DNA of 64,000 nt from an uncultured Dehalococcoidales bacterium (GTDB taxonomy: Bacteria > Chloroflexota > Dehalococcoidia > GIF9 > UBA5629). The stretch covers positions 8,657 to 72,656 of the forward strand of contig CAZAIO010000001.1 of NCBI GenBank assembly GCA_964485235.1, given 5' to 3'. The notes beneath the pieces were generated by a model. It saw only the letters and a list, made by a program, of their open reading frames with translations, did not search any database and was not told the DNA's origin. Position 1 is the stretch's first letter. Each line of letters opens with the position of its first letter. A program made the position numbers and the translations under genes. Below, in pieces: positions 6,861 to 60,082 of the stretch.

Positions 6861-6900
6861 GATATATCTTGTTATATCTAGATATTATATGATATATCTT
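6861..6900. promoter_or_regulatory. Candidate PadR operator. Two direct repeats gatatatctt flank a perfect 12-bp palindrome atatctagatat.
   Basis: Seen directly at 6861-6870, 6874-6885 and 6891-6900. The element sits between the -10 box and the padR RBS, as expected for autorepression. Confidence 0.4.
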
Positions 6901-6921
6901 AGGGAATTCATAAAGGAGAAA

Positions 6922-7437
6922 ATGATGTTTAAACATAGACCGGCTCGCGGGGACCGTTTCTTCCATGGATACCGGCATGAAAGCCCTTTCCATAAAGGTG
7001 ATCTGAAATATGTTGTGCTGAACCTGTTGAAGGAGAAACCAAGGTACGGATATGAAATCATCCGTGAGCTTGAGGATTATTCTTACGGTTTTTACAAACC
7101 GAGCCCGGGTGTCGTTTACCCGACACTGCAAATGCTCGAAGAAATGGAATATACCACCTCTGAAGAAAGAGACGGAAAAAAAGTTTATGTAATTACCGAA
7201 GCTGGACTCCGGTTTCTCAGTGAGCGAAGCGATACTGCGAATGAAATCAAACGCAAGATGAGCCATCACTGGAACTCCGATTATTATGATATCTACAGTG
7301 AGATTTCCAGTGAATTCAAAGAACTGGGGAGACTGATGCATCGCCGTGCCCGCTTTTTGGACGCAGACAAAATACAACGAATCAGAAAAATAATTTTGCA
7401 GGCATCCGGTGAAATCGAATCTATTATTAAAGAATGA
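6922..7437 (+). CDS. PadR-family transcriptional regulator.
   Basis: PadR winged-helix signature (LLKEKPRYGYEIIRELE...GVVYPTLQMLEE). The RBS aaaggaga precedes ATGATG, so the start could be 6922 or 6925. Confidence 0.8.
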   Translation: MMFKHRPARGDRFFHGYRHESPFHKGDLKYVVLNLLKEKPRYGYEIIRELEDYSYGFYKPSPGVVYPTLQMLEEMEYTTSEERDGKKVYVITEAGLRFLSERSDTANEIKRKMSHHWNSDYYDIYSEISSEFKELGRLMHRRARFLDADKIQRIRKIILQASGEIESIIKE

Positions 7438-7455: not shown

Positions 7456-7659
7456 ATGGCACCGTCAAGAAAAAGCGAAATTTCAGTAGAGTACGATGAT
7501 ACTCTCAAGAGCTACTATGTCATTTATGAGTTAGCCGTCGTAGGGCTGGGCAAAACAAAGCAATCCGCGTTAAAAGATCTGCGAAGTGCGGCACATTTTG
7601 GAATAGACACGACTATAGATTCTCAACTAAAAACATTTGATATAGAAAAGGAGGTCTGA
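7456..7659 (+). CDS. Small UPF0150/HicB-like protein (67 aa).
   Basis: The YYVIYELAVVGLGKTKQSALKDLRSAA segment resembles the HicB/UPF0150 fold. It follows padR after an 18-bp gap. Confidence 0.3.
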   Translation: MAPSRKSEISVEYDDTLKSYYVIYELAVVGLGKTKQSALKDLRSAAHFGIDTTIDSQLKTFDIEKEV

Positions 7660-7661
7660 TT

Positions 7662-7859
7662 ATGGGTTATTTTACGATTCTGGCAGCTATTCCCGGTTTT
7701 TTTCTGAGTTCCCTGTTTTTTATGCTTTTATGGGGCGTTATAGCACCTAAAATAGGTGTGGCGGATATCAACTATGTGACTTCCATGCTTATCACGATAA
7801 CACTCTGGATCGCCGTAGCGCCTCTTGCAGCCGCAGCCGGTAGACGGAGATGGCACTAA
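7662..7859 (+). CDS. Small two-helix membrane protein (65 aa).
   Basis: Strong RBS aaaaggagg 7 nt upstream. Two hydrophobic helices. Lies 2 bp after the previous ORF. Confidence 0.35.
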   Translation: MGYFTILAAIPGFFLSSLFFMLLWGVIAPKIGVADINYVTSMLITITLWIAVAPLAAAAGRRRWH

Positions 7860-8033
7860 ATTCAGCCTGTTAAAAAGTACCGTAAAGCAATTCTTTACTA
7901 TTTGTAGCATCTTCAGGGTACTGTAAATAGTTATCTATTTGTCTTGACACGGTATTTTTAATATGTTATTTTACCGCAATATACCTCGAATCCCTATGTC
8001 ATATATTTTATATGGTTATTAAACCTGCATCCT

Positions 8034-8477
8034 TTGCCGCTCACTATTATGGTAGATTACGAAGGAGATAACGGCTTCAGGCTTGAGGCAGGTCAGGAAT
8101 TGCCTGCCGTACAATATACGCTTGACAGATCGACTGTCGACGCCTATTTGAACGCAGTCGAGGAGTCGTCCCGGATTTATCATGAAACCGATCTCGTACC
8201 GCCTACAGCCATAGCGGCGCTTGCAATGGCGGCACTCGCTGAAGGGACCGAATTTCCCCCGGGCTCCATACACGTTTCACAAAAACTGGATTTCAAACAC
8301 AGCGTACATATCGGCGACACAATTTTCTGTCATTCCAGAATAGGCCGCAGCTACAAACGGGCAGGAATGCACCTTATTACCGTGGAACTTCGTGTGGAGA
8401 ATGCTGAAACACGCGAAGTTCTCACCGGGGAATTATCGTTTATAGCTCCGCAGGAAAGTCGCATTGAAGGAAAATGA
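8034..8477 (+). CDS. MaoC_N / FAS1-like hotdog protein (HadA-like non-catalytic dehydratase subunit).
   Basis: TTG start. Hotdog-fold N-terminal half-dehydratase, immediately upstream of a MaoC dehydratase, matching the split HadAB organisation. Confidence 0.6.
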   Translation: MPLTIMVDYEGDNGFRLEAGQELPAVQYTLDRSTVDAYLNAVEESSRIYHETDLVPPTAIAALAMAALAEGTEFPPGSIHVSQKLDFKHSVHIGDTIFCHSRIGRSYKRAGMHLITVELRVENAETREVLTGELSFIAPQESRIEGK

Positions 8478-8481
8478 ATAC

Positions 8482-8910
8482 ATGGATATTGAACACCCTT
8501 TTTCCGGACTGAAAGAAGGTGACTTCTTACCCGGTCTGAAGAAATATATTACTCAGGAGCGTATTGACCTCTATGCAAAAGCGAGCAGGGACTTCAATCC
8601 CGTACATGTCGATCCGGAGTATGCGAAAAATACACCGCTCGGGGGAACAATTGCACACGGCATGCTCAGCCTTTCCTATATATCCGAAATGATGACGATA
8701 CTGTTCAATAAATACTGGCTCGATACCGGATCTATTGATGTGAGATTTAAAACTCCCGCGCGTCCCGGCGATATTGTTACAGTAAACGGTAGTATCAAGA
8801 AAATAGAAAAGGACAATGATCGAACTTTATTTCGTTGTGATGTGTCATGTATGAATCAAAATGATGAGGTCATCGTAACAGGTGAAACACGGGTGAAAAT
8901 AATAAAATGA
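8482..8910 (+). CDS. MaoC-family (R)-specific dehydratase (HadB-like catalytic subunit).
   Basis: MaoC motif region NPVHVDPEYA...GGTIAHGM. The ATG at 8482 lies 4 nt after the upstream stop, with an RBS gaaggaaaa. Confidence 0.75.
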   Translation: MDIEHPFSGLKEGDFLPGLKKYITQERIDLYAKASRDFNPVHVDPEYAKNTPLGGTIAHGMLSLSYISEMMTILFNKYWLDTGSIDVRFKTPARPGDIVTVNGSIKKIEKDNDRTLFRCDVSCMNQNDEVIVTGETRVKIIK

Positions 8911-9029
8911 GGAACGCTGTTACTCTATCATTGTATGGAAAACGGCCAACTTCGATCAGTCCATAATTCACAGAAATCATTTGTCTACACTGAACGTAAA
9001 ATCGCTTTGAAAGGATAAAGACATTCACC

Positions 9030-9836
9030 ATGATGAACAAGTCTGATTTCACAGGTAAAGTCGCTTTGATTACAGGCGGTTCACGCGGCATAGGTCATGC
9101 GATTACCCTTGCACTGGCAGATATGGGCGCTGATGTTGTTATTAATTACTTTCGCAAGACCTCCGCTGCGGAAAATACCGCAAGAGAAGCTGCACAAAGA
9201 GGAGTACAGGCACACATCATTAAAGCCAACGTAGGAGAAACCGACAAGATCGATAGTATGTTCGATGAAATCAAAGAGAAATATGGAAGATTGGATATTT
9301 TTATCAGTAACGCTGCTTCCGGTGTTCCCCGTACCGCCATGGAGCTTGATGTTCGCGGCTGGGACTGGACAATGGATATCAACACGCGTGCATTTCTGCT
9401 CTGTGCACAACGTGCGGCAACCCTGATGGCAAACGGAGGGAAAATCGTTTCAATTTCAAGCCTCGGTTCACGACTGGTGTTCCCTATTTACACTGCGGTA
9501 GGTGTATCGAAAGCTGCACTGGAAGCATTAACACGATACCTTGCCATTGAATTCGCCCCCCGGGGGATTAGTGTGAACTGCATTTCTGCAGCCGCAGTTG
9601 AGACAGAAGCCATAAAGCAATATACCGGAGACAAAAATCTGCCTGAACTCACCTGGAAAACGACTCCTGCAGGCAGAATGGTAACACCTGAAGATATCGC
9701 ACAGACAGTGGTGTTTCTTTGCAGCGAAGATGCATATATGATTCGCGGACAGGTTATCGTTATCGATGGTGGAGTTTCCCTTATGCCCATATCGCAATCA
9801 ACCGCCAGTAAAGACAAGGAAGAAAAAAATGACTGA
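9030..9836 (+). CDS. fabL: Enoyl-ACP reductase of the FabL type (SDR family).
   Basis: Glycine motif TGGSRGIG and a Y-x6-K catalytic spacing (YTAVGVSK) typical of FabI/FabL enoyl reductases rather than the Y-x3-K of ketoreductases. The protein also matches B. subtilis FabL as I recall it. Confidence 0.65.
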   Translation: MMNKSDFTGKVALITGGSRGIGHAITLALADMGADVVINYFRKTSAAENTAREAAQRGVQAHIIKANVGETDKIDSMFDEIKEKYGRLDIFISNAASGVPRTAMELDVRGWDWTMDINTRAFLLCAQRAATLMANGGKIVSISSLGSRLVFPIYTAVGVSKAALEALTRYLAIEFAPRGISVNCISAAAVETEAIKQYTGDKNLPELTWKTTPAGRMVTPEDIAQTVVFLCSEDAYMIRGQVIVIDGGVSLMPISQSTASKDKEEKND

Positions 9837-11058
9837 CCGTAGAATAGTAATTACCGGGCTCGGCGCGATCACCCCGCTGGGGCTCACTGTGAATGACTTC
9901 TGGGAAGGGCTTATCAGCGGTAAAAGCGGCGTCGGGCCAATAACCCTGTTCGATGCAAGTCAGTTTTCCGTAAAAATAGCAGCAGAAGTAAAGGACTTTC
10001 ATCCCGAAGATTTTATGACCATGAAAAGAGCTGACCGCGGTGCACGTTGCACTCAATTTGCAATCGCAGCAGCAAAAATGGCGCTTCAGTCAGCAGGGCT
10101 TGAGATATCGCCGGATATAGCCGAGACGGTCGGCGTGCTTCTGGCAACAAGCGGTGATCCGTCTTTTCTTTTGCATCAGGGCATAGTATTAAAAGAACGC
10201 GGGCCTAAAAAACTCGACCCTCTTACGATACCGAAGATGGCTGCGAGCATGGTGCCGTCACAGGTCGGACTGGTACTGGGCGCAAAAGGGCCGAACAGCA
10301 GCGTCAACAGCGCATGCGGCAGTGGAAGCGATGCGCTGGGGTCAGCGTTTAATTTTCTCCGTCTCGGTCACGCAGAAGTCATGATAAGCGGAGGCGCAGA
10401 ATCGCAGGTAAATCCCGTGGGTATCGGCGCAACGAGCATGGTCGGAGCATTGTCCAGGAATCCCGATCCTTTGAAAGCGAGCAGGCCTTTCGATAAAAAC
10501 AGGGACGGTTTTGTATTCGGTGAAGGCGCAGGCATTCTTATACTGGAAACCTACGACCATGCGAAGCGAAGGAATGCACCCATTCTCGCGGAAATGATCG
10601 GCGCCGGATGGTCATTCGACGCATATAGCGAAACAGCCCCCGATGCCGAACAGCAGGCTATGTCAATGAAAAGAGCTATCAGGGATGCCGGTATATCACC
10701 TGATGATATAGATTATATTAACGCTCATGGCACGAGTACTCAGCTTAACGATGCGGCAGAGACAAAAGCAATCAAGATGGTTTTCGGTGAAAAAGCGTAT
10801 TCACTTCCCATAAGCTCGAATAAATCGATGATAGGGCATCTTGCCTGTGCCGCGGGAGCCGTAGAAGCGGTAGCGGCAGTAATGACAATAACAAACGGTA
10901 TTATCCCGCCAACAGTCAACTATGAGACTCCCGATCCCGATTGTGATCTTGACTATGTTCCCGGTCAGGCGCGAAAACAGAAGGTGAATATCTGTCTTTC
11001 TAATTCGTTCGGTATGGGCGGGCAAAATAGCAGTATTATAATAAAACACTTCGTGTAA
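9829..11058 (+). CDS. fabF: Beta-ketoacyl-ACP synthase II.
   Basis: Cys-His-His catalytic triad context (NSACGSG, NAHGTST, GHLACAAG). The ATG at 9829 overlaps the fabL stop (ATGACTGA). Confidence 0.85.
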   Translation: MTDRRIVITGLGAITPLGLTVNDFWEGLISGKSGVGPITLFDASQFSVKIAAEVKDFHPEDFMTMKRADRGARCTQFAIAAAKMALQSAGLEISPDIAETVGVLLATSGDPSFLLHQGIVLKERGPKKLDPLTIPKMAASMVPSQVGLVLGAKGPNSSVNSACGSGSDALGSAFNFLRLGHAEVMISGGAESQVNPVGIGATSMVGALSRNPDPLKASRPFDKNRDGFVFGEGAGILILETYDHAKRRNAPILAEMIGAGWSFDAYSETAPDAEQQAMSMKRAIRDAGISPDDIDYINAHGTSTQLNDAAETKAIKMVFGEKAYSLPISSNKSMIGHLACAAGAVEAVAAVMTITNGIIPPTVNYETPDPDCDLDYVPGQARKQKVNICLSNSFGMGGQNSSIIIKHFV

Positions 11059-11067
11059 GGAGGCATT

Positions 11068-11817
11068 ATGGAAATCCGTGAACTGGACGGCAAAGTATCG
11101 CTGGTAACAGGTGCCTCGAGAGGCCTCGGACGGGCAATCGCCTGTAAACTCGCCGCGCAGGGCTCGAAAATAGCAGTGAACTATATGAGTAGTGACGACA
11201 AAGCACAACAGGTCGTTGAAGAGATTCAGAACACAGGCGGTGAAGCATTTGCCGTTAAAGCGAATGTATCCGACTCGAACGCTGTAAAAGAGATGATGAA
11301 AATAATTGTTGGGAAATGGGGAAAGATAGACATACTGGTCAATAATGCCGGTATAGTCAAAGACAACCTCATCTTGAGAATGTCCGACTCGGCATGGGAC
11401 GATGTCATTAATACTAACCTCCGCGGGGCGTATTTATGCAGCAAATTCGCACTTCGCACCATGATGGAACAGCCATGTGGAAGGATAATCAATATTTCGT
11501 CGGTTGCCGGTCTTATCGGAAATACAGGACAGACGAACTATTCCGCTGCAAAGGGCGGGCTTATAGCTTTTACAAAGAGTCTGGCACGCGAAGTCGGCTC
11601 AAGAAACATTACTGTCAACGCTGTAGCGCCGGGATTTATTGTAAGTGATATGACCTCTAAACTACCTGCGGAGCAACAGGACCTTATTCTGGCGCGCATC
11701 TCGCTGGGCAGGTTCGGCATACCTGACGATGTTGCGGATCTTGTCTCATTTCTGGCAGGAGAACGTGCCGGTTATATCACCGCACAGGTTATCTGCGTAG
11801 ACGGCGGTGTGTTATAG
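11068..11817 (+). CDS. fabG: 3-oxoacyl-ACP reductase.
   Basis: Classical SDR: TGASRGLG, NNAG, Y-x3-K (YSAAK). Strong RBS taaggagg. Confidence 0.85.
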   Translation: MEIRELDGKVSLVTGASRGLGRAIACKLAAQGSKIAVNYMSSDDKAQQVVEEIQNTGGEAFAVKANVSDSNAVKEMMKIIVGKWGKIDILVNNAGIVKDNLILRMSDSAWDDVINTNLRGAYLCSKFALRTMMEQPCGRIINISSVAGLIGNTGQTNYSAAKGGLIAFTKSLAREVGSRNITVNAVAPGFIVSDMTSKLPAEQQDLILARISLGRFGIPDDVADLVSFLAGERAGYITAQVICVDGGVL

Positions 11818-12050
11818 ACAAACATCGATAACATTCATTCGAGCCGGTCCCCGCTTAAATAAATTCAATTATTTCTATAATCTGTATATAGCAAACTGTT
11901 GCTTAAAATCATTCCGATTTGTAGTGAAAAATAGATTCACTACAGTACATTTATAAAAATTAACAGCCTCTCAATGTGGACTAACTGGACAATCTTTCCT
12001 ATTTCGGTTAGATTATACAATTAAAAAGAAAGATTCTGTGAACTGTAAAT

Positions 12051-12798: not shown

Positions 12799-13431
12799 TT
12801 AGTACCGTTCCTTGTAACTTTTCCGGAAAAAGACTTTCTTCCAGCTTCCTGCAGCGGCATGCATTTCCATCAATCGAGGAATATACATTACACCGGGCAG
12901 AAGCAGGATAATGACGGAGTAGATAATCAATACCGTATCGTGATAGATAAGCCATGCAATAAGCGGAAAACAAATAAATGCGACACTATAGCTGAGCGTC
13001 GCGTAACGTGTAAAAAGTAACATCAGAAGGAACAGCCCCAGATAGAATGGAGCAGCCCACGGTAATAAATAAATAAGTACTCCGATACATGTGGCGCCGC
13101 CTTTTCCGCCTTTAAATTTCAGGAAAAACGGAAAGTTATGACCCAGAACAGAAAATAGCCCGGCGAGAAGGTGTACAACAAATGGAGTACCCAGAACCAC
13201 CGAAACAAAAACAGCAAGAGCGCCCTTGGCGATGTCGATAAATAGTACGAGCAGTCCCCAGAAAAAGCCAATCTGATATATGACATTCATCGTACCCGCA
13301 TTACGGCTTCCGACCGTTCGTATATCGACGCCCTTTTTATAACGTGCTACCAGAAAAGACGCAGGAATAGACCCGATAAGGTAAGCAAGGATGAGTGCAA
13401 CTATAGAAAGGATAATCGTAATTAAAGTCAT
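12799..13431 (-). CDS. plsY: Glycerol-3-phosphate acyltransferase PlsY.
   Basis: Characteristic N-terminus (YLIGSIP...RYKKGVDIR..GSRNAGTMNV) and a polytopic membrane profile. Confidence 0.85.
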   Translation of the reverse strand: MTLITIILSIVALILAYLIGSIPASFLVARYKKGVDIRTVGSRNAGTMNVIYQIGFFWGLLVLFIDIAKGALAVFVSVVLGTPFVVHLLAGLFSVLGHNFPFFLKFKGGKGGATCIGVLIYLLPWAAPFYLGLFLLMLLFTRYATLSYSVAFICFPLIAWLIYHDTVLIIYSVIILLLPGVMYIPRLMEMHAAAGSWKKVFFRKSYKERY

Positions 13432-15088: not shown

Positions 15089-16063
15089 ATGTTTAATACA
15101 CTTACAGACATCAAAGGTATAAAGGTAGGCCACTACACCGACAGGGAAGCAGCCACCGGTTGTACTGTGGTTCTCTGCGAAGAAGGTGCAGTTGCAGGTG
15201 TCGATGTGAGAGGTTCAGCTCCCGGCACACGTGAAACAGACCTTCTGAGACCGTCAAACCTGGTAGAAAAAGTGCACGCTATCCTCCTGAGTGGTGGAAG
15301 CGCTTTCGGTTTGAATGCAGCTGGCGGAGTAATGCGTTACCTGGAGGAAAAAGGTGTCGGCTTTCAAACGAATACACTTCGCATCCCTATTGTTCCCGCA
15401 GCAGTGCTCTATGACCTGGACACAGGCAATTCGCATATCCGGCCGGGAATTGAAGAGGGATACCAGGCATGCCTCTCGGCAAGCGACGGTTTAGTTCCGG
15501 AAGGCTCTGTAGGCTCCGGTACAGGCGCCACGGTCTGTAAGCTAATGGGAATAAAAAGCGCAATAAAAAGCGGGATTGGTACGTGCAGCAGACAATTGCC
15601 GGGTAATATTACAGTAGCTGCACTTTTTGCAGTAAATGCTTTGGGAGATATTATAGACCCGTCCACAGGACAGGCATTGGCCTGTCCCCGTTATCCCGAT
15701 GATTCACGCTGGACCCGCACAATTGAATTAATTGCTAGTAATGTTATTAAACAAGATATTATGTCAACCAATACCACGCTTGGAGTAATAGCCACCAATG
15801 CAGTGTTGAACAAAGAACAGGTAAATAAAATCGCGTCTATGGCTCACGATGGAATGGCCAGGTCTATCAATCCAAGTCATACCATGTATGACGGCGATAC
15901 TATATTCGTACTTTCACTCGGAAACGTAACAGGTGATATATCGATGATTGGAGCAGTTGCCGCCGAATTAACGGCTGAGGCGATCAACAGGGCAATTATT
16001 CACGCTGATACGCTTGCCGGTATACCGTCAATTAAAGACCTTAGAGGTAATCCGTCATGCTGA
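15089..16063 (+). CDS. P1/S58-family peptidase (DmpA / L-aminopeptidase D-Ala-esterase-like).
   Basis: N-terminal IKGIKVGHYTD and a C-terminal region typical of DmpA/OAT-fold peptidases. Start placed at the ATG at 15089, downstream of the hairpin. Confidence 0.7.
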   Translation: MFNTLTDIKGIKVGHYTDREAATGCTVVLCEEGAVAGVDVRGSAPGTRETDLLRPSNLVEKVHAILLSGGSAFGLNAAGGVMRYLEEKGVGFQTNTLRIPIVPAAVLYDLDTGNSHIRPGIEEGYQACLSASDGLVPEGSVGSGTGATVCKLMGIKSAIKSGIGTCSRQLPGNITVAALFAVNALGDIIDPSTGQALACPRYPDDSRWTRTIELIASNVIKQDIMSTNTTLGVIATNAVLNKEQVNKIASMAHDGMARSINPSHTMYDGDTIFVLSLGNVTGDISMIGAVAAELTAEAINRAIIHADTLAGIPSIKDLRGNPSC

Positions 16064-16914
16064 CTATAGGTTTTATCGGGGCAGGGATTACAGGCACAGC
16101 ACTATCAGTGCGGCTCGCTCAACAGGGCTATCAAGTCGTTGCAGTAGCAAGCAAAAGTATGTCATCTGCAAAAAGATTCGAGAGCCGGATACAGGGTTGC
16201 AACAGTTATAAGACCGCTCAGGAAGTTGCAGACCGGGCACAACTTGTTTTCATTACCACCCCGGACGATGTAATTTCAGATGTCGCATCAAATATTCAGT
16301 GGCACGAAGGACAATACGCCGTCCATTGTAGCGGTGCGCATTCTACGGACATCCTGGAAGCAGCACAAAAATGCGGCGCCGGCACCGGATGTTTTCATCC
16401 GTTACAAACGTTCGCAAGTATCGAACAGGCGATCGAAAACATACCCGGTTCTACATTCGCTATTGAAGCCGAAGCACCGCTATCGACCATTCTTAAAGAT
16501 ATGGCGACTGCTATGAACGGAAATTGTGTGATGTTACAGGCAGGCGATAAAGTACTCTACCACGCTGCTGCGGTAATAGCCTGCAACTACCTGGTTACAC
16601 TGGTCAAACTGGCAACTGACCTCTGGTCTGAATTTGGAACATCGCGGGCACAGGCTGTGAAAGCACTAATGCCGTTATTACAGGGTACGTTGAGTAATAT
16701 AGAACAGGTCGGTCTCCCCGACTGCCTTACCGGGCCTATAGCACGGGGCGATATCGGAACAGTGGAAAAACATATACAGGCACTTAAAGAGAAAACACCG
16801 TCTCTACTCAGCAGTTACAGGGAACTTGGACTTCAGACTATCCCGATTGCTGCCGCAAAAGGCAAAATCGATAGCGAGAGCGCCGAAGCTTTAAAAGCTC
16901 TTTTTAATATTTAA
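16057..16914 (+). CDS. Rossmann-fold DUF2520-type oxidoreductase. Putative PanG-type ketopantoate reductase.
   Basis: N-terminal GxGxxG (IGFIGAGITG). Overlaps the upstream stop and sits directly 5' of panD-panB-panC. Confidence 0.5.
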   Translation: MLTIGFIGAGITGTALSVRLAQQGYQVVAVASKSMSSAKRFESRIQGCNSYKTAQEVADRAQLVFITTPDDVISDVASNIQWHEGQYAVHCSGAHSTDILEAAQKCGAGTGCFHPLQTFASIEQAIENIPGSTFAIEAEAPLSTILKDMATAMNGNCVMLQAGDKVLYHAAAVIACNYLVTLVKLATDLWSEFGTSRAQAVKALMPLLQGTLSNIEQVGLPDCLTGPIARGDIGTVEKHIQALKEKTPSLLSSYRELGLQTIPIAAAKGKIDSESAEALKALFNI

Positions 16915-16934
16915 TTTAAACGAGGAGAACTGTA

Positions 16935-17327
16935 ATGAGGACAATGCTAAGAAGCAAAATTCATAGGGCACGGGTCACCGAGACCAATGTCTCCTACGAA
17001 GGGAGTATCACCATCGATTCACAACTTTTAGAGGCTGCCGACATCCTTCCCTATGAAAGAGTCGAGGTGCTGAATGTAAACAACGGAGCACGCTTCAGCA
17101 CATACACAATTGAAGGAAAACGAGGGTCCGGAGAAATTTGCATTAATGGTGCAGCCGCCCGGCTCGCCGCAAAAGACGATATCGTCATCATACTCTCGTA
17201 TGAATCAGTGACAAATGAGGAAGTCGGAAAAGTTAAACCCATTATGGTCTACGTAAACTCCGATAATGAAATCAAGTCCATAAAACATGCCGGAGACCAT
17301 GCAGAAAATGTACTTGTAACGTTATAA
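16935..17327 (+). CDS. panD: Aspartate 1-decarboxylase.
   Basis: MLRSKIHRARVTE...GSITID motif (pyruvoyl-forming Gly-Ser). Confidence 0.9.
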   Translation: MRTMLRSKIHRARVTETNVSYEGSITIDSQLLEAADILPYERVEVLNVNNGARFSTYTIEGKRGSGEICINGAAARLAAKDDIVIILSYESVTNEEVGKVKPIMVYVNSDNEIKSIKHAGDHAENVLVTL

Positions 17328-17342
17328 AAGTGAGGCGCTTTC

Positions 17343-18176
17343 ATGCGTGTGAGTATTAACGACATCAAGCAGAAGAAGCTGAACAAAGAAAAATTTGCGA
17401 TGCTTACTGCATATGATTATTCAACGGCAAAGCTGATTGAAGAAGCAGGCATCCCCATCATTTTAGTTGGTGATAGCCTCGGCACGGTTATACTTGGATA
17501 TGAGTCCACTATTCCGGTGACGATAGACGTGATGATCCACCACACTAAAGCTGTTGTACGCGGAACAAAGCATGCTCTTGTAGTAGGTGATATGCCGTTT
17601 ATGACATACCACACAGATATACCTGAAGCCATGAAAAATGCAGCCCGTTTTATACAGGAAGCCGGAGCACAGGCAGTGAAGCTCGAAGGAGGAGTTGTCG
17701 TTGCTGATACGGTAAAACGTATCGTTGATTGCGGCATACCGGTAATGGGACACATAGGGCTTACACCACAATTTATTCATCAACTGGGCGGGTTTAAAGT
17801 ACAGGGAAAAACTTCGGAAGCAGCGGAACGTTTACTTAAGGACGCGATAGCCCTGGAACAGGCAGGAGTTTTCAGCATAGTACTGGAACTGGTCCCCTCA
17901 CAACTTTCAAAGTTTATTACTGAAACAATAAACGTTCCTACTATTGGAATAGGAGCCGGCCCCGACTGCGACGGGCAGGTGCAGGTAATCAGCGATATGC
18001 TCGGACTGTTTACCGACTTCGTCCCCAAACACGCCAAACAATATGCCAGATTGTCCGAAAATATAACTGCTGCAGTTAAAAGCTACATAGAAGAGGTCAC
18101 ATCCGGCGTTTTCCCCACTGCACAACATTCATCGTCGATAGACGAGCAAGTACTTAAAAATATTAAACGCTCATAA
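17343..18176 (+). CDS. panB: 3-methyl-2-oxobutanoate hydroxymethyltransferase.
   Basis: KETHMT signature regions (MLTAYDY, VGDSLG). Confidence 0.9.
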   Translation: MRVSINDIKQKKLNKEKFAMLTAYDYSTAKLIEEAGIPIILVGDSLGTVILGYESTIPVTIDVMIHHTKAVVRGTKHALVVGDMPFMTYHTDIPEAMKNAARFIQEAGAQAVKLEGGVVVADTVKRIVDCGIPVMGHIGLTPQFIHQLGGFKVQGKTSEAAERLLKDAIALEQAGVFSIVLELVPSQLSKFITETINVPTIGIGAGPDCDGQVQVISDMLGLFTDFVPKHAKQYARLSENITAAVKSYIEEVTSGVFPTAQHSSSIDEQVLKNIKRS

Positions 18177-18180
18177 TATT

Positions 18181-19014
18181 ATGGAAATTGCAGAAACAAT
18201 CGATAAAATAAAGTCCCTGACACGCGCAATGTCCGGCTCGGTTGGCTTCGTCCCTACGATGGGATTCCTTCATGAAGGGCATTTGTCACTTGTCCGTAAA
18301 GCCCGTGAAGAAAACGACGTCGTTGTAGTAAGTATTTTCGTCAATCCGACACAGTTCGGGAAGAACGAGGATTTCGGCAGCTATCCACGGAACTTTAAAC
18401 AGGATATCGAAATGCTGCAAAAAGAGCAGACCGACATCGTATTTTTCCCTTCAGCAGTCGAGATGTATCCCGACGGATTTGACAGCTGGGTGGAGGTCAA
18501 ACAGGTTACCGACCATCTTGAAGGTATTTGCCGTCCGGGCCATTTTCAGGGAGTCACTACAGTCGTTGCCAAGTTATTTAACATTGTTGAACCGGACAGG
18601 GCGTATTTCGGACAGAAGGATGCCCAACAGGCAATTGTTATACAAAAAATGGTCCGGGACTTGAATATGAACCTTGATGTGATCGTCCTTCCTACCTGCA
18701 GGGAAAGTGACGGGCTGGCAATGAGCAGCCGTAATACCTATCTCACTCCGGAAGAGCGCAATATAGCTGCAGTTCTCTTTCGCGCATTAACTCTTTCCAG
18801 AGCTCTGTATGAAAAAGGAGAAAAAGACGCTGCATTTATCAGACAGGAAATGCAGAAAATGATCGAAAAAGAAAAGTTCACCTTTGTTGAATATATAAGC
18901 ATCGCAGATGAACGTACACTCGAAGAACTGACGGAAATCACTCCGCCCGCGCTTGTATCCCTCGCTGTAAAAGTCGGTAAGACAAGGCTGATCGATAATA
19001 TTGTGCTGAAATAG
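18181..19014 (+). CDS. panC: Pantoate--beta-alanine ligase.
   Basis: PTMGFLHEGH (HIGH-like) motif. Length 277 aa. Confidence 0.9.
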   Translation: MEIAETIDKIKSLTRAMSGSVGFVPTMGFLHEGHLSLVRKAREENDVVVVSIFVNPTQFGKNEDFGSYPRNFKQDIEMLQKEQTDIVFFPSAVEMYPDGFDSWVEVKQVTDHLEGICRPGHFQGVTTVVAKLFNIVEPDRAYFGQKDAQQAIVIQKMVRDLNMNLDVIVLPTCRESDGLAMSSRNTYLTPEERNIAAVLFRALTLSRALYEKGEKDAAFIRQEMQKMIEKEKFTFVEYISIADERTLEELTEITPPALVSLAVKVGKTRLIDNIVLK

Positions 19015-24469: not shown

Positions 24470-24770
24470 CGCAATTAAATAATGTAAAGGCTTTGAGCAA
24501 GACTAGTAAATCTTATGCGAAGCTACAGAGAACCGGGTTAGCTGGAAACCGGTGCCAGCGGTAAGGTTGAATGGACTTGGGAGCCGCAAACCGAAAGAGC
24601 AGATACTTGAGTAGGCTTTGACGCAAAGGGTAGCGTTATCACAATCCAGGGTATCACTTCACATGTTGTGAAGCCGTACCTGAAAGAGACAGTCGAAAGA
24701 CTAACAAGGGTGGTACCGCGAAAGCAAGCCTCTCGCCCCTTGAGCGAGAGGCTTATTTTTTTACACGGGA
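24470..24770 (+). promoter_or_regulatory. T-box riboswitch leader, probably with a Trp (UGG) specifier, ending in a terminator.
   Basis: Canonical T-box sequence aacaaGGGTGGTACCGCG at 24703-24720. Terminator aagcctctcgc-ccctt-gagcgagaggctt followed by eight T at 24726-24766. Stem I region with an AGAGA motif and GAAUGGA / UGGA candidate specifier contexts. Confidence 0.7.
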
Positions 24771-24886
24771 GGAAAAGATGGCAGATGTAATAATAAAGAT
24801 GTGGCCCCTGAGGGGCCTTAAGTTCGATTAAACTATTATATGTCCCGTTCTCTATTAATAAAAACTTATTATTGAAAGGAGTGAAA

Positions 24887-26248
24887 ATGGAACGATACAA
24901 GTATGTTTTAGATGAAAAAGAGATGCCGACTCAATGGTATAATATCCAGGCAGATTTTCCGGAACCTTTACCCCCGGTACTGCATCCCGCCACGGGAAAT
25001 CCGGTTACACCGGATGATCTTGCGCCTCTCTTTCCAATGGAATGCATCATGCAAGAGGTAAGTACAGAGCGGTGGATTGAAATCCCCGAGGAAGTACAGG
25101 ATGTTTATAAGACATGGAGGCCAACAGTTTTACACCGTGCCCACCGGCTCGAAAAGGCCCTGGACACACCCGCAAAGATTTTCTATAAATATGAGGGGAC
25201 CAGTCAGGCAGGAAGCCATAAACCCAATACTGCCATCGCACAAGCGTACTACAACAAAAAAGAAGGCATCAAGAGAATAACGACAGAGACCGGTGCCGGT
25301 CAGTGGGGCAGCGCACTATCACTCGCCGGTGCATTCTTCGGAATTGAAATAAAAGTATATATGGTCTCTGTAAGCTATCACCAGAAGCCTTATCGCCGGA
25401 TCATGATGGAAGTATGGGGAGCCAAGTGTGTTCCCAGCCCAAGCCGTGATACAAAAGCAGGACGGGATGCACTGGCAAAGGACCCGAACAGTCCGGGTAG
25501 CCTTGGCCTGGCAATCAGTGAAGCTGTGGAAGAATGCGTCTCCCGCGATGATACCCATTATTCTCTCGGGAGCGTACTGAACCACGTCCTGTTACACCAG
25601 ACCATCAACGGGCTTGAGACAAAGATATTAATGGAACGGGCGGGCGTCTACCCTGATATCATTATCGGATGTGTCGGTGGAGGATCTAACTTTGCCGGAA
25701 TGTTCCTGCCGTTTCTTAAAGACAAAATCGAGGGCAAAAAGCCCGATCTGCGAATAATTAACGTAGAACCGGCAAGTTGTCCGACGTTGACTAAAGGCCC
25801 TGACGCCTATGATTTCGGAGATGTGTCCGGTCTTACTCCATTGATGAAGATGTATACACTGGGCCATGATTTTATGCCGCCTCCGGTTCATGCCGGCGGA
25901 CTGCGCTATCATGGTATGGCACCCATTATCAGCCATTGTCTGCGTCTCGGACTCGTCGAAGCAAGAGCCGAGCATCAACTGGATACCTTTGAAGCAGGTA
26001 TAACTTTCGCTCGCACTGAAGGTATAATCAGCGCTCCGGAAACCAACCATGCCATCAGGACAACGATAACTGAAGCTCTGAAATGTCGCGAATCAGGCGA
26101 AGCAAAGGTCATTTTAATGAACCACAGCGGACATGGCCATGTTGATATGGCTGCTTATGAAGCCTATCTGTCGGGTAAACTTCAGAACTACGAATATCCC
26201 GAAGAACTGGTAAAGGAAGCACTGACTCATTTACCTAAAGTAGGCTAA
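24887..26248 (+). CDS. trpB2: TrpB2-type tryptophan synthase beta-like PLP enzyme.
   Basis: N-terminus [30 protein letters not shown], typical of the TrpB2 clade. A PLP lysine lies in the [11 protein letters not shown] context. RBS aaaggag. Confidence 0.85.
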
Positions 26249-55746: not shown

Positions 55747-56730
55747 ATGAAAATTGTAGTTACCGGTGCTTCAGGGCACCTCGGCGCCAACTTAATACGG
55801 ACACTTCTGGATAAAGGCGAGGATCTTACAGCCCTCACTCATATCGACCATCGCGCTCTTGATGGACTTGATATAAAAACGGCATCATGTGATATTTGTG
55901 ATCCTGCGTCAATGCACGGGGTATTCGAAGGGGCGGATATTGTGTTCCACGCAGCAGGACATATCTCAATATTGATGCACGAACAACACAAATTTGAAAT
56001 GATAAACGTAACGGGCACACAAAATGTTGTCGAGGAATGTCTTCATAGTGGGGTCCGGCGTCTGGTGTATTTCAGCTCGATCCATGCATTTGAACAGGAA
56101 CCGTTCGATATGCTGCTTGATGAATCACGTCCTCTGGTAAAAAAAAGCCGGAAAAGCTTACCTTATGATATGTCAAAAGCCGCTGCAGAAAGGGAAATCC
56201 GGAAAGGAATAGAAAAAGGGCTGGATGCCGTAATAATCAATCCTACGGCAATTATTGGCCCATATGATTTCCGCCCTTCTCACTGTGGCGAAGCGATCCT
56301 TTTAATGGCCCGGGGTAAACTACCGTCGCTGGTTTCCGGTGGATTTAACTGGGTTGATGCACGGGATGTTGCTGCCGGTGCGATTAATGCAGCGCAAAAA
56401 GCCGCGTGCGGCGAAAAATACCTGCTATCAGGTCACTGGGTATCGGTACGGGATATGGCGACACTTGTCCAGGAAATAACCGGAAAACGCGCACCGCGTG
56501 TTACATGTCCGCTGTGGCTTGCATCTGCCGGAACACCGTTTATCGCATTGTCTTCCCGGTTGACCGGTAAACGTCCGTTATATACTCCTGTATCGCTAAA
56601 AGCCTTATATAGCAATCGTCATATCAGCCATCAAAAAGCGACAAATGATCTCGATTATCATCCCCGGCCGTTTAGAGATACGATTATCGATACACTCCGC
56701 TGGTTTAAAGAGTACGGATATCTGGATTAA
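55747..56730 (+). CDS. NAD(P)-dependent epimerase/dehydratase, extended-SDR family (3β-HSD / NSDHL-like).
   Basis: N-terminal VTGASGHLG Rossmann motif. 327 aa extended-SDR length. A YxxxK is present. Confidence 0.65.
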   Translation: MKIVVTGASGHLGANLIRTLLDKGEDLTALTHIDHRALDGLDIKTASCDICDPASMHGVFEGADIVFHAAGHISILMHEQHKFEMINVTGTQNVVEECLHSGVRRLVYFSSIHAFEQEPFDMLLDESRPLVKKSRKSLPYDMSKAAAEREIRKGIEKGLDAVIINPTAIIGPYDFRPSHCGEAILLMARGKLPSLVSGGFNWVDARDVAAGAINAAQKAACGEKYLLSGHWVSVRDMATLVQEITGKRAPRVTCPLWLASAGTPFIALSSRLTGKRPLYTPVSLKALYSNRHISHQKATNDLDYHPRPFRDTIIDTLRWFKEYGYLD

Positions 56731-56754: not shown

Positions 56755-57516
56755 ATGAACGAAAGAATTTTTTTTAATAGACTTATTATCGCATGGATGA
56801 TTATTGCGCTTGTCATCTTTATAGTACTCATTTTTATCAACGCTCCATACGGACGGCATACCCGGAAAGGATGGGGACTTACCATCGACAGCAGAATTGC
56901 ATGGATGGTTATGGAATCAGTATCGCCACTGGGATTCGCGGTCTGCTTCTGGCTGGGAAACAATGTCAAGACAGTCACACTGGTGGTCTTTTTATGTATG
57001 TGGGAAGCACATTATATACACAGGGCTTTTATCTATCCTTTTAGTTTGAACTCGGTAGTCAAACGGATGCCCGTACTGATTATCGTATTTGCGATTATAT
57101 TCAACACAGGAAACGCCTATCTAAACGGTCGTTACCTGTTTACATTCGCGCCTCCCTATTCTAATGAATGGCTCACCGATCCCAGATTTATCTTCGGTTT
57201 CTTGCTTTTCGTCGGCGGTTTCGTTATAAACCGGAGTGCCGATAATATACTTCGTTCACTTCGTGGGCCGGGTGAACAGGATTATAAAATACCTTATGGC
57301 ATGTTATATCATTGGATCTCCAGTCCGAACTACCTGGGTGAAATATTAATATGGGTTGGTTGGGCGATCGCAACGTGGTCTTTACCGGGTGTTGCTTTTG
57401 CGCTGTGGACCATTGCAAATCTTGTACCGCGCGCCCGGGCTCACCATATGTGGTATAAAGAACATTTCAACAATTATCCTCCTGAACGCAAGGCTTTGAT
57501 ACCGCTGATATGGTAA
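56755..57516 (+). CDS. 3-oxo-5-alpha-steroid 4-dehydrogenase (SRD5A / polyprenol reductase) family membrane reductase.
   Basis: Polytopic membrane protein. The C-terminal block (LRGPGEQDYKIPYGMLYHWISSPNYLGEILIWVGWA...RARAHHMWYKEHFNNYPPERKALIPLIW) matches the conserved C-terminal domain of steroid 5α-reductases. Confidence 0.65.
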   Translation: MNERIFFNRLIIAWMIIALVIFIVLIFINAPYGRHTRKGWGLTIDSRIAWMVMESVSPLGFAVCFWLGNNVKTVTLVVFLCMWEAHYIHRAFIYPFSLNSVVKRMPVLIIVFAIIFNTGNAYLNGRYLFTFAPPYSNEWLTDPRFIFGFLLFVGGFVINRSADNILRSLRGPGEQDYKIPYGMLYHWISSPNYLGEILIWVGWAIATWSLPGVAFALWTIANLVPRARAHHMWYKEHFNNYPPERKALIPLIW

Positions 57517-58471: not shown

Positions 58472-60082
58472 TTGAGTTGCCAAGGAAAAGTAATGTACGA
58501 ACTGAACGATAGACCATGGTTCAAGCACTGGCCGGAAAGTGTACCAAGGCATATAGACTATCCTGAGATACCGTTATATGCCCTGCTTACGGAAACCGCA
58601 GAAAGATATCCCGATGCGATAGCGTTTAACAATAAAATTGACAGCATAACTTACGCCGAGCTTGACAAAGCAACCGATAAGCTTGCCGCTGCGCTTATCG
58701 ATAATGGTATAAAAAGAGGAGATACCGTCGTTCTTTTTCTGCCCAACAGTTTTGAATTCGTCATAGGTTACTACGGAATTTTGAAAGCCGGCGCGAGCGT
58801 TGTGCCTGTTAATCCCTTATATAAAGGAGAGGAACTAAAATTCCAGATCAACGATTCGGAAGCCTCTGCAATTATCGCTGATGCCGATTCTCTTTCTACT
58901 GTACAGGCAATCAGGAATAGCACAGGGTTAAAATTTGTGGTCATCTCCGGTATATCGAAGTCAGAAAAAGTTATCTCATTGCAGACAATTTTGGATGAAT
59001 ATGATTCTGCGCTTTTCAGCCCTGTGAAAATCGATCCGATGGAAGACATCGCCGCAATAGAATATACCGGTGGAACGACCGGTCCTCCCAAGGGCGCAAT
59101 GTTGACACACTTTAACCTGGTAGCCAACGCGATACAAAATGCCGTATGGCTCGGTTGGAGCCACCGAGACATCATTGTAGGGCTTCTGCCTTTCTATCAC
59201 AGCTGGGGCGCATGCACATGTGTCAACTCCGCCATTTATTCCGGTTCCCGTGTCATTATAATCACCAGGTTCGATGCGGAAGACCTGCTTGATACAATTC
59301 AAAGAGAGAAAGCTACCATACTTTACGGTGCCGCATCGATGTTCACCATGCTGGTAGCAAATCCCGTGCTTACACAGTATGATTTATCCAGCTTGAAATG
59401 TGTAAAAGCCGGCGCAATGCTTATTCCCGCTGAAACAAAATCTAAATGGGAGCAGATCACCGGAGTGACAATGGTTCTCGGGTATGGCCTCAGTGAGGCC
59501 AGTCCGGAGACTCATGATTCCCCGCTGGACAGGATAGTACCTGAAACAATTGGTATACCGATCATGGACACCGATGCACGCATTGTCGATGAAAAAACAG
59601 GACTGACAGATATGCCGCTCGGCAAGACCGGAGAACTTATCATTCGTGGCCCTCAGGTAATGAAAGGATATCTTAAACGTCCCGATGAAAATATAGCGGC
59701 ACTCCGTGATGGATGGTTATATACCGGCGACCTTGCTACCATGAGCGAAGATGGTTACTTCCGAATAATCGATAGAAAAAAAGAGATAATCAAATATAAA
59801 GGCTACACTATCGCACCGGGCGAAGTGGAGTCAGTACTCTACCAGCACAATGCAATAAAGGAATGTGCAGTTGTAGGCAGACCCGACCCTGCTTTCGGAG
59901 AAATACCAAAAGCATTTGTTGTATTGCTTGAAGGATACGATGCCTCTGCCGAGGAAATAATCGAATTCTGCAAACAGAGAATTTCCCCCTATAAAAGGAT
60001 TCGTGAAGTAGAATTCGTCGATGAAATCCCTAAAAGCAAGGTCGGAAAAGTATTGAGAAGGCTTCTCAGAGATCGGCATTAG
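58472..60082 (+). CDS. AMP-dependent synthetase/ligase (acyl-CoA synthetase).
   Basis: AMP-binding signature YTGGTTGPPKGA, and TGD ... K at the C-terminus. Confidence 0.85.
   Translation: MSCQGKVMYELNDRPWFKHWPESVPRHIDYPEIPLYALLTETAERYPDAIAFNNKIDSITYAELDKATDKLAAALIDNGIKRGDTVVLFLPNSFEFVIGYYGILKAGASVVPVNPLYKGEELKFQINDSEASAIIADADSLSTVQAIRNSTGLKFVVISGISKSEKVISLQTILDEYDSALFSPVKIDPMEDIAAIEYTGGTTGPPKGAMLTHFNLVANAIQNAVWLGWSHRDIIVGLLPFYHSWGACTCVNSAIYSGSRVIIITRFDAEDLLDTIQREKATILYGAASMFTMLVANPVLTQYDLSSLKCVKAGAMLIPAETKSKWEQITGVTMVLGYGLSEASPETHDSPLDRIVPETIGIPIMDTDARIVDEKTGLTDMPLGKTGELIIRGPQVMKGYLKRPDENIAALRDGWLYTGDLATMSEDGYFRIIDRKKEIIKYKGYTIAPGEVESVLYQHNAIKECAVVGRPDPAFGEIPKAFVVLLEGYDASAEEIIEFCKQRISPYKRIREVEFVDEIPKSKVGKVLRRLLRDRH

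Follow-up and report, generated by a model that had tools for sequence, protein, structure and literature searches.

Five co-directional genes at positions 8034-11817 of a 64,000-nucleotide stretch of DNA from an uncultured member of the Dehalococcoidia (Chloroflexota), a stretch referred to below as the window, were found in the order hotA-hotB-fabL-fabF-fabG, all on the plus strand. We hold with high confidence that the first two genes specify a dehydratase associated with fatty acid synthesis. Judging from sequence and gene context, the locus is probably a housekeeping type II fatty acid synthesis (FAS-II) operon in which this pair serves as the sole replacement of FabZ. What would be new here is that a bacterial class has independently recruited a split MaoC-type dehydratase, encoded by the first genes of its housekeeping fab operon; the chemistry is as expected. 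A sequence-only reading of the same DNA had named the five gene families, and these are borne out by the Pfam and NCBIfam scores, the FabF catalytic triad and the Y-x6-K and Y-x3-K spacings of the two reductases; the gene order that it gave is corrected here. The five genes (ACP, acyl carrier protein; SDR, short-chain dehydrogenase/reductase; ORF, open reading frame) are as follows.

8049-8477, plus strand: hotA, a 142-aa MaoC_N-type single hotdog protein (PF13452, 34.9 bits)
8482-8910 (mechanical ORF from 8464), plus strand: hotB, a 142-aa MaoC-type hotdog protein (PF01575, 72.9 bits)
9030-9836, plus strand: fabL, an SDR-type enoyl-ACP reductase (NCBIfam FabL equivalog NF005975, 348.2 bits against a cut-off of 328)
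9829-11058 (mechanical ORF from 9766), plus strand: fabF, beta-ketoacyl-ACP synthase II (TIGR03150, 512.3 bits against 493.75)
11068-11817, plus strand: fabG, 3-oxoacyl-ACP reductase (TIGR01830, 324.7 bits against 297.75)

The profile searches that had been proposed as a check on the hotdog genes (PF13452 and PF01575) both returned matches above the gathering score, which places hotA and hotB, with their MaoC-type hotdog fold, in the MaoC/hydratase-2 superfamily, and the suspected FabL identity of the SDR was likewise upheld by its equivalog score. The hotA start at ATG 8049 is conserved in relatives and used in database entries, the TTG at 8034 being a mechanical ORF start only, and the hotB start at ATG 8482 matches database entry P0001 (142 aa) and is preceded by about 9 nt by a GAAGGAAA ribosome-binding site. 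Three of the junctions are tight (a 4-nt gap between hotA and hotB, an 8-nt overlap of fabL and fabF, and a 9-nt gap between fabF and fabG), as the translational coupling claimed for all five genes would have it, but hotB and fabL lie 119 nt apart (8911-9029).

The proposed active subunit of the 3-hydroxyacyl-ACP dehydratase is hotB, whose motif D37-F-N-P-V-H42-VDPEY-A fits the hydratase-2 pattern D-x-N-P-[LIV]-H-x5-[AS], with deviations at two upstream positions of the long PROSITE-style motif (A for [LVIG] and R for G). Across 20 relatives, residues D37, N39, P40, H42 and G60 do not vary. D-x-N-P-x-H occurs in 82 of 84 hotB-family ORFs versus none of 79 hotA-family members, the hotA profile resting on a shallow alignment of 17 close relatives (word-indexed search). 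We accordingly propose hotA as the non-catalytic structural and substrate-binding partner of hotB; its fold resembles that of the non-catalytic partners HadA, HadD and ChsH2. From the obligate adjacency of the two genes and the missing catalytic residues in hotA we infer that the products form a heterodimer. Sequence matches of hotB in the PDB include AF1124 (1.4e-13), PhaJ (1.6e-9), HTD2 (3.4e-9), HadB (4e-8) and also Rv0130, and residues 1549-1657 of yeast FAS1 are matched with an E-value of 2.9e-6. AF1124, PhaJ, Rv0130, HTD2 and HadB are matched by fold as well, but the fold searches yield ‘MaoC-type hotdog’ only and do not separate HadAB-like from PhaJ-like proteins.

FabZ and FabA (PF07977) show no sequence similarity to the pair: neither hotA nor hotB is matched by the family profile, and E. 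coli FabZ against hotB, the best pairing in the window, reaches an E-value of only 0.25. FabZ is homomeric with a His/Glu active site, whereas hotA/hotB would be heteromeric, with the Asp/His motif found in the MaoC branch. When every ORF of 45 aa or longer in the window was searched with hmmsearch and phmmer with filters off, no ACP, PlsX, DegV, FabZ, FabD or FabH was detected (best E-value 0.16 or worse), so that the absence of ACP, FabD, FabH and FabZ claimed for the locus extends over the whole 64 kb.

The pair resembles HadAB/HadBC/HadBD (Rv0635-0637, Rv0504c) of mycobacterial FAS-II in its architecture and in the role proposed for it, having two adjacent single-hotdog genes (about 140-160 aa in such systems, 142 aa each here), of which the catalytic subunit carries the hydratase-2 motif and the partner does not. 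To this extent the comparison with HadAB holds, but it does not extend to orthology: the scores are 24.6 bits for the HadA equivalog (NF040624), about one seventh of its cut-off of 180, and 37.2 bits for the HadB equivalog (NF010246), about one fifth of its cut-off of 203. Because the scores fall so far under both cut-offs, hotA and hotB are analogues rather than orthologues of HadA and HadB. The architecture is that of mycobacterial HadAB, but the pair belongs to another branch of the MaoC superfamily, and hotB is less similar to HadB than to PhaJ and archaeal AF1124. It differs further in its phylum (Chloroflexota), in heading a plsX-acpP-fab operon rather than lying in a hadABC locus, in having one partner subunit where mycobacteria have three alternatives, and in presumably serving membrane fatty acids of ordinary length rather than meromycolate elongation.

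Other MaoC-type systems offer partial parallels. Human HTD2 and yeast Htd2 of mitochondrial FAS-II are likewise MaoC-type hotdog proteins that replace FabZ in an ACP-dependent system, but each is a single gene product and eukaryotic, whereas here a catalytic and a non-catalytic gene are paired. The dehydratase domain of the type I FAS of fungi and of the Corynebacterium-Mycobacterium-Nocardia group also combines PF13452 and PF01575, again with the non-catalytic half on the N-terminal side; there, however, the halves are fused in a pseudo-dimeric, multi-hotdog megasynthase, and here they are two free proteins of a type II system. PhaJ/MaoC hydratases and ChsH1-ChsH2 act on CoA substrates in polyhydroxyalkanoate (PHA) synthesis, beta-oxidation and sterol catabolism, and their gene neighbourhoods are wholly unlike the plsX-acpP-fab context described below.

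It is gene context in relatives that supports the role of the pair as the FAS-II dehydratase. A genome scan with the hotB alignment gave 588 confirmed matching stretches, of which the best 80 loci were analysed (best hotB identity 60%), and hotA was found directly 5' of hotB in 76 of them. Among the 57 loci with at least 5 kb of downstream sequence, pls/fab genes continue after the pair in 42. The modal order was hotA-hotB-plsX-acpP-fabL-fabF-fabG, often followed by degV, and the same order is seen in a Logan locus (L002). For the reciprocal test, metagenomes were scanned with the PlsX of a close relative, giving 80 loci (best identity 75%). In 30 of the 32 close loci, defined by a PlsX identity of 60% or more and by 1 kb or more of upstream sequence, hotB lies directly 5' of plsX, and in a 31st the pair is slightly further upstream; more distant PlsX loci mostly lack the pair. 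This conserved two-way linkage makes hotA-hotB an integral part of the ACP-dependent fatty acid synthesis and phospholipid operon of the clade. Neither the window nor any of the 160 loci from the two scans (80 genome loci and 80 PlsX loci, the latter covering 0.41 Mb) contains a FabZ-like ORF, and no FabH was seen in any operon examined. From the company of acpP, plsX, fabF, fabG and fabL in relatives we infer that the substrate is an ACP-bound 3-hydroxyacyl group.

The same context bears on the possibility that the pair is an (R)-specific enoyl-CoA hydratase of the PhaJ or CroR kind, serving beta-oxidation, PHA or acyl-CoA metabolism beside fab genes that are its neighbours by chance. PhaJ and Rv0130 are among the best PDB matches of hotB, whose database names include ‘3-hydroxybutyryl-CoA dehydratase’ (JGI) as well as ‘acyl dehydratase’ and ‘MaoC family dehydratase’ (hotA is entered as ‘hypothetical protein’, ‘acyl dehydratase’ or ‘MaoC family dehydratase N-terminal domain-containing protein’), and in 14 of the 57 loci the pair has no fab neighbour. 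Chance is nevertheless hard to reconcile with a linkage to plsX-acpP-fabL-fabF-fabG that spans dozens of species and is confirmed reciprocally, and PhaJ homodimers keep the motif in each subunit, while hotA lacks it. Nor was any thiolase, acyl-CoA dehydrogenase, crotonase or PHA synthase found in the 64-kb window or in L085, a syntenic scaffold introduced below. We therefore regard this explanation as very unlikely and agree with the sequence-only reading in preferring fatty acid synthesis over beta-oxidation.

A role as an accessory dehydratase deserves more weight, although we still consider it unlikely. Here a canonical FabZ encoded elsewhere, together with fabD, fabH and acc, would do the bulk of the work and leave to the pair some chain lengths or a specialised lipid; in mycobacteria, HadAB works beside FAS-I. 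Essential fab genes do lie elsewhere, as fabD and fabH are also outside the operon and its flanks, and for this reason the absence of fabZ from the same regions is no proof of its absence from the genome. Paralogous hotA-hotB pairs also occur in clusters suggestive of specialised lipids: in L060 (9025-13415) an FlK-like thioesterase gene is followed by hotA, hotB, a 144-aa ORF without a Pfam match, a ketosynthase (KS) with 46% identity to FabF, a 4HBT thioesterase and an LpxL-family acyltransferase. Such clusters may represent a specialised lipid pathway in other Dehalococcoidia. On the other side, hotA and hotB almost always open an operon that also contains plsX and acpP, a housekeeping link between fatty acid and phospholipid synthesis, and no Dehalococcoidia flank examined holds a FabZ. 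With the pair included, the operon also supplies each of the four elongation steps with a single enzyme, which argues against an accessory role. In five further loci (L051, L053, L056, L059 and L062) only the order hotA-hotB-KS was seen.

Several of these observations weigh against the pair being the sole FabZ replacement and are best taken together: the loci in which it has no fab neighbour, the lack of fabD and fabH in the modal operon (both of which must be encoded elsewhere), the L060-type paralogues, the JGI name for hotB, and the greater similarity of hotB to CoA-dependent (R)-hydratases and archaeal MaoC proteins. To these may be added that no genome of a cultured Dehalococcoides or Dehalogenimonas is among the best 80 of the 588 stretches, that the window operon lacks an ACP altogether, and that the assignment of the pair as a dehydratase is drawn from its sequence and gene context. 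On balance a housekeeping FAS-II dehydratase remains the probable role. Of the two suggestions made earlier, a dedicated long-chain or specialised pathway and simply a FabZ replacement, the latter fits better; a dedicated very-long-chain system was rejected, having no supporting feature.

Four of the loci without a fab neighbour (L003, L004, L008 and L010) are among the closest genome representatives, with 54-60% hotB identity. The pair lies between phosphofructokinase/aldolase and trehalose-phosphate synthase genes in L010 and adjoins genes for a corrinoid protein and a uroporphyrinogen decarboxylase-like methyltransferase in L004; this part of the class has seen repeated break-up of the fab operon.

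As a working model, FabF would condense acyl-ACP with malonyl-ACP and FabG would reduce the 3-keto group, after which the hotA/hotB heterodimer would convert (3R)-hydroxyacyl-ACP to trans-2-enoyl-ACP, the substrate on which FabL would complete the cycle by reduction of the enoyl group. The heterodimer would have a single active site, formed by Asp37 and His42 of hotB (D-x-N-P-x-H), and hotA would complete the double-hotdog fold and the acyl-binding tunnel while contributing no catalytic residues.

The three partner enzymes retain the residues expected of such a cycle. FabL has the Y-x6-K spacing as Y-TAVGVS-K, and Y-x6-K was found somewhere in 45 of 48 FabL-family ORFs, an unanchored pattern search and thus a weak check; FabG has Y-x3-K as Y-SAA-K. 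FabF keeps the Cys163/His300/His337 triad and Lys332 in an alignment to E. coli FabF (43% identity overall), and the gating Phe of the latter (NSFGFGG) is replaced by Met at residue 396 (11031-11033, NSFGMGG). Met or Leu is also found at the gate in Dehalococcoidia orthologues (L002-L082), the motif being NSFGLGG in 17, NSFGMGG in 10 and NSFGFGG in one of 44 FabF-family ORFs.

To the best of our knowledge, FabZ is regarded as near-universal and essential in bacterial FAS-II and as a drug target, and the recognised bacterial exception is HadAB/BC/BD of mycolic acid producers. We found no publication on the fatty acid synthesis dehydratase of Dehalococcoidia or on the presence or absence of FabZ in the class. 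Should the pair be the sole dehydratase, a whole class of environmentally abundant bacteria, among them the subsurface and marine Dehalococcoidia related to the organohalide respirers, would use an independently recruited heterodimeric MaoC enzyme to make ordinary membrane lipids. This would close an apparent gap in their fatty acid pathway and provide a second independent example of the HadAB type, implying more than one origin of the split double-hotdog arrangement. It would also put right a systematic annotation error, as the present names imply a role in beta-oxidation or fermentation in metabolic reconstructions.

The window itself departs from the modal order in lacking plsX and acpP. 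The ACP-less compact core of the earlier description is not a designed unit; our data show it to be the usual Dehalococcoidia operon, from which a deletion has removed plsX and most of acpP. L085, a 31-kb ENA scaffold, is syntenic with the window gene for gene, from the FAD-binding, 2Fe-2S and molybdopterin subunits, metallo-beta-lactamase, PadR, 65-aa ORF, hotA and hotB on the 5' side to fabL, fabF, fabG, a zinc-ribbon protein, plsY (minus strand) and Usp on the 3' side, and the sole difference is the presence of plsX-acpP between hotB and fabL. Both genes are also present in L088 and in L089 and L091 (75-76% hotB identity for the latter two), and plsX is intact in all three. In L085, plsX (10857-11856) is split between two called ORFs (230 and 104 aa), possibly through a frameshift or a sequencing error. 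Remnants of both genes persist in the 119-nt interval of the window.

8907-8921, plus strand: remnant of the plsX start, whose ATG overlaps the hotB stop as ATGA and which encodes MRNAV
8935-9018, plus strand: 3' remnant of acpP, from about codon 57 to codon 83 plus the stop

In relatives plsX has the same ATGA overlap and begins with MRIAV or MKIAV, while the ORF from the plsX start of the window ends after 19 codons. Translation of 8947-9015 gives QLRSVHNSQKSFVYTERKIALKG*, which aligns to residues 61-83 of the L091 ACP (48% identity, E-value 1.8e-5 in a small search). At the DNA level the interval can be aligned with the 3' end of acpP and with the spacer between acpP and fabL in L085, L088 and L091, the stop of the remnant lying 11 nt before the fabL ATG compared with 12 nt in L085. 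About 1.2 kb, from around codon 6 of plsX to around codon 56 of acpP, has thus been lost in the lineage of the window, and with it the phosphopantetheine-attachment Ser (DSL motif). The operon was ancestrally hotA-hotB-plsX-acpP-fabL-fabF-fabG, and this deletion gave the form seen in the window. The same hotB-fabL junction, 98% identical, is present in two more contigs from other JGI samples (L001 and L095). Occurring in three contigs in total, it is a real feature of the population rather than a misassembly; an assembly artefact was rejected on this ground and because both gene remnants have diverged.

The loss of the ACP attachment site and of almost all of plsX, with no substitute ACP, PlsX or DegV within the 64 kb, raises the question of whether the operon is decaying, its fab genes becoming pseudogenes in a lineage that depends on lipids from outside. 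We consider this highly improbable. The five remaining genes are full length and 66-85% identical to their L085 counterparts (FabL 80%, FabF 85%, FabG 82%), in the same range as, and not below, the neighbouring housekeeping genes. Their ratios of nonsynonymous to synonymous substitution rates (dN/dS) between the window and L085 are 0.04-0.13 (0.11 for hotB and 0.04 for both fabF and fabG), with the proviso that dS is saturated for several gene pairs and only some of the values are usable. These genes are therefore under purifying selection. The acpP remnant, in contrast, has drifted to 48% identity while the genes on either side stayed conserved, which indicates that selection on the latter has continued since the deletion. 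As the lineage kept using the enzymes, an ACP and a PlsX are presumably supplied by second copies elsewhere in its genome; second ACP genes do exist in the class (L011), and plsY in the window is intact. The deletion offers a clean natural experiment on the modularity of the operon.

A different way of living without the deleted genes, which may have been the only operon copies of acpP and plsX in the lineage, would be a change of carrier, with hotA/hotB, FabL, FabF and FabG now working without a canonical ACP, on CoA thioesters or an unrelated carrier. ACP-independent fatty acid synthesis has been proposed for archaea, to which such a switch may be likened, and since MaoC-type dehydratases are normally CoA enzymes, a move off ACP would be easier with them than with FabZ. 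The idea seems to us very doubtful, and we retain a second acpP and plsX as the presumed solution.

The region upstream of the operon contains the following features.

6889-7437, plus strand: gene of a PadR-family regulator (PF03551, E-value 2.4e-18)
7456-7659 and 7662-7859: two small ORFs of 65-67 aa without a Pfam match, between the PadR gene and the operon
7944-7972, plus strand: promoter-like site (TTGACA, 17 nt, TG-extended TATTTT)
7971-7988, plus strand: invariant 18-nt box TTACCGCAATATACCTCG, at or just past the -10 element

Of all sequences in the region the promoter-like site comes closest to the consensus (10 of 12 positions, with TG), and it is known by consensus match only; its -35 and -10 blocks are conserved in 7 related loci, and the operon promoter region as a whole is more conserved than the coding sequence. 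The box TTACCGCAATATACCTCG is identical in the window, L085, L086, L087, L088 and L095, differs at one or two positions in L090, L091 and L092 and at four in L089, and was not found 5' of hotA in more distant loci. It may be an operator or leader element. The conserved promoter and box are confined to the near clade, which also has the PadR gene and the two 65-67-aa ORFs upstream; the PadR plus 65-aa ORF arrangement 5' of hotA recurs in L085, L086, L088, L089 and L090. A classic PadR operator (ATGT-N8-ACAT) was considered for the promoter and rejected, as a by-eye check showed that it is not present there.

The surroundings are those of a core chromosome, the 64-kb window including ileS, yidC, jag, rnpA, rpsR, ssb, ychF, the phosphoenolpyruvate carboxykinase gene, dnaG, rpoD, ffh, sbcC, uvrA and panDBC. 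The operon had been called Firmicute-like, a description that does not stand in this Dehalococcoidia/Chloroflexota context: homologues of the window hotB come almost entirely from Dehalococcoidia/Chloroflexota metagenome-assembled genomes, with a few from Acidaminococcaceae and one from a Thermodesulfobacteriota metagenome-assembled genome, and a Firmicute origin of the locus was rejected on this basis. Downstream of the operon lies one further gene of phospholipid synthesis.

12799-13431, minus strand: plsY, acyl-phosphate:glycerol-3-phosphate acyltransferase (PF02660, E-value 1.4e-41)

PlsY takes the product of PlsX as its substrate. The earlier placement of plsY next to the operon is right as to neighbourhood, but the gene is convergent with the operon, lies 981 nt 3' of fabG and is separated from it by the zinc-ribbon gene. 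It is 74% identical to the L085 copy and has the same position and orientation there.

About 4 kb 3' of the fab genes is a pantothenate cluster (16057-19014) consisting of panD, panB, panC and a DUF2520/Rossmann protein that is a candidate ketopantoate reductase; pan genes provide the precursor of the prosthetic group of ACP and CoA. A T-box leader was detected at 24484-24743 (107 bits, above the gathering score), and the gene that follows it encodes a 458-aa enzyme dependent on pyridoxal phosphate (PALP; 24872-26248) rather than an aminoacyl-tRNA synthetase; T-box leaders are not confined to Firmicutes. Finally, the segment 54449-60082 carries a gene for a 315-aa SDR on the minus strand, followed by a protein of the 3-beta-hydroxysteroid dehydrogenase/epimerase type (55747-56730), a membrane protein assigned to PF02544, the steroid 5-alpha-reductase/TECR family (56755-57516), and then a nucleotidyltransferase resembling MobA and an AMP-binding ligase (58472-60082). 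The PF02544 enzyme is unusual for an anaerobic Chloroflexota genome.

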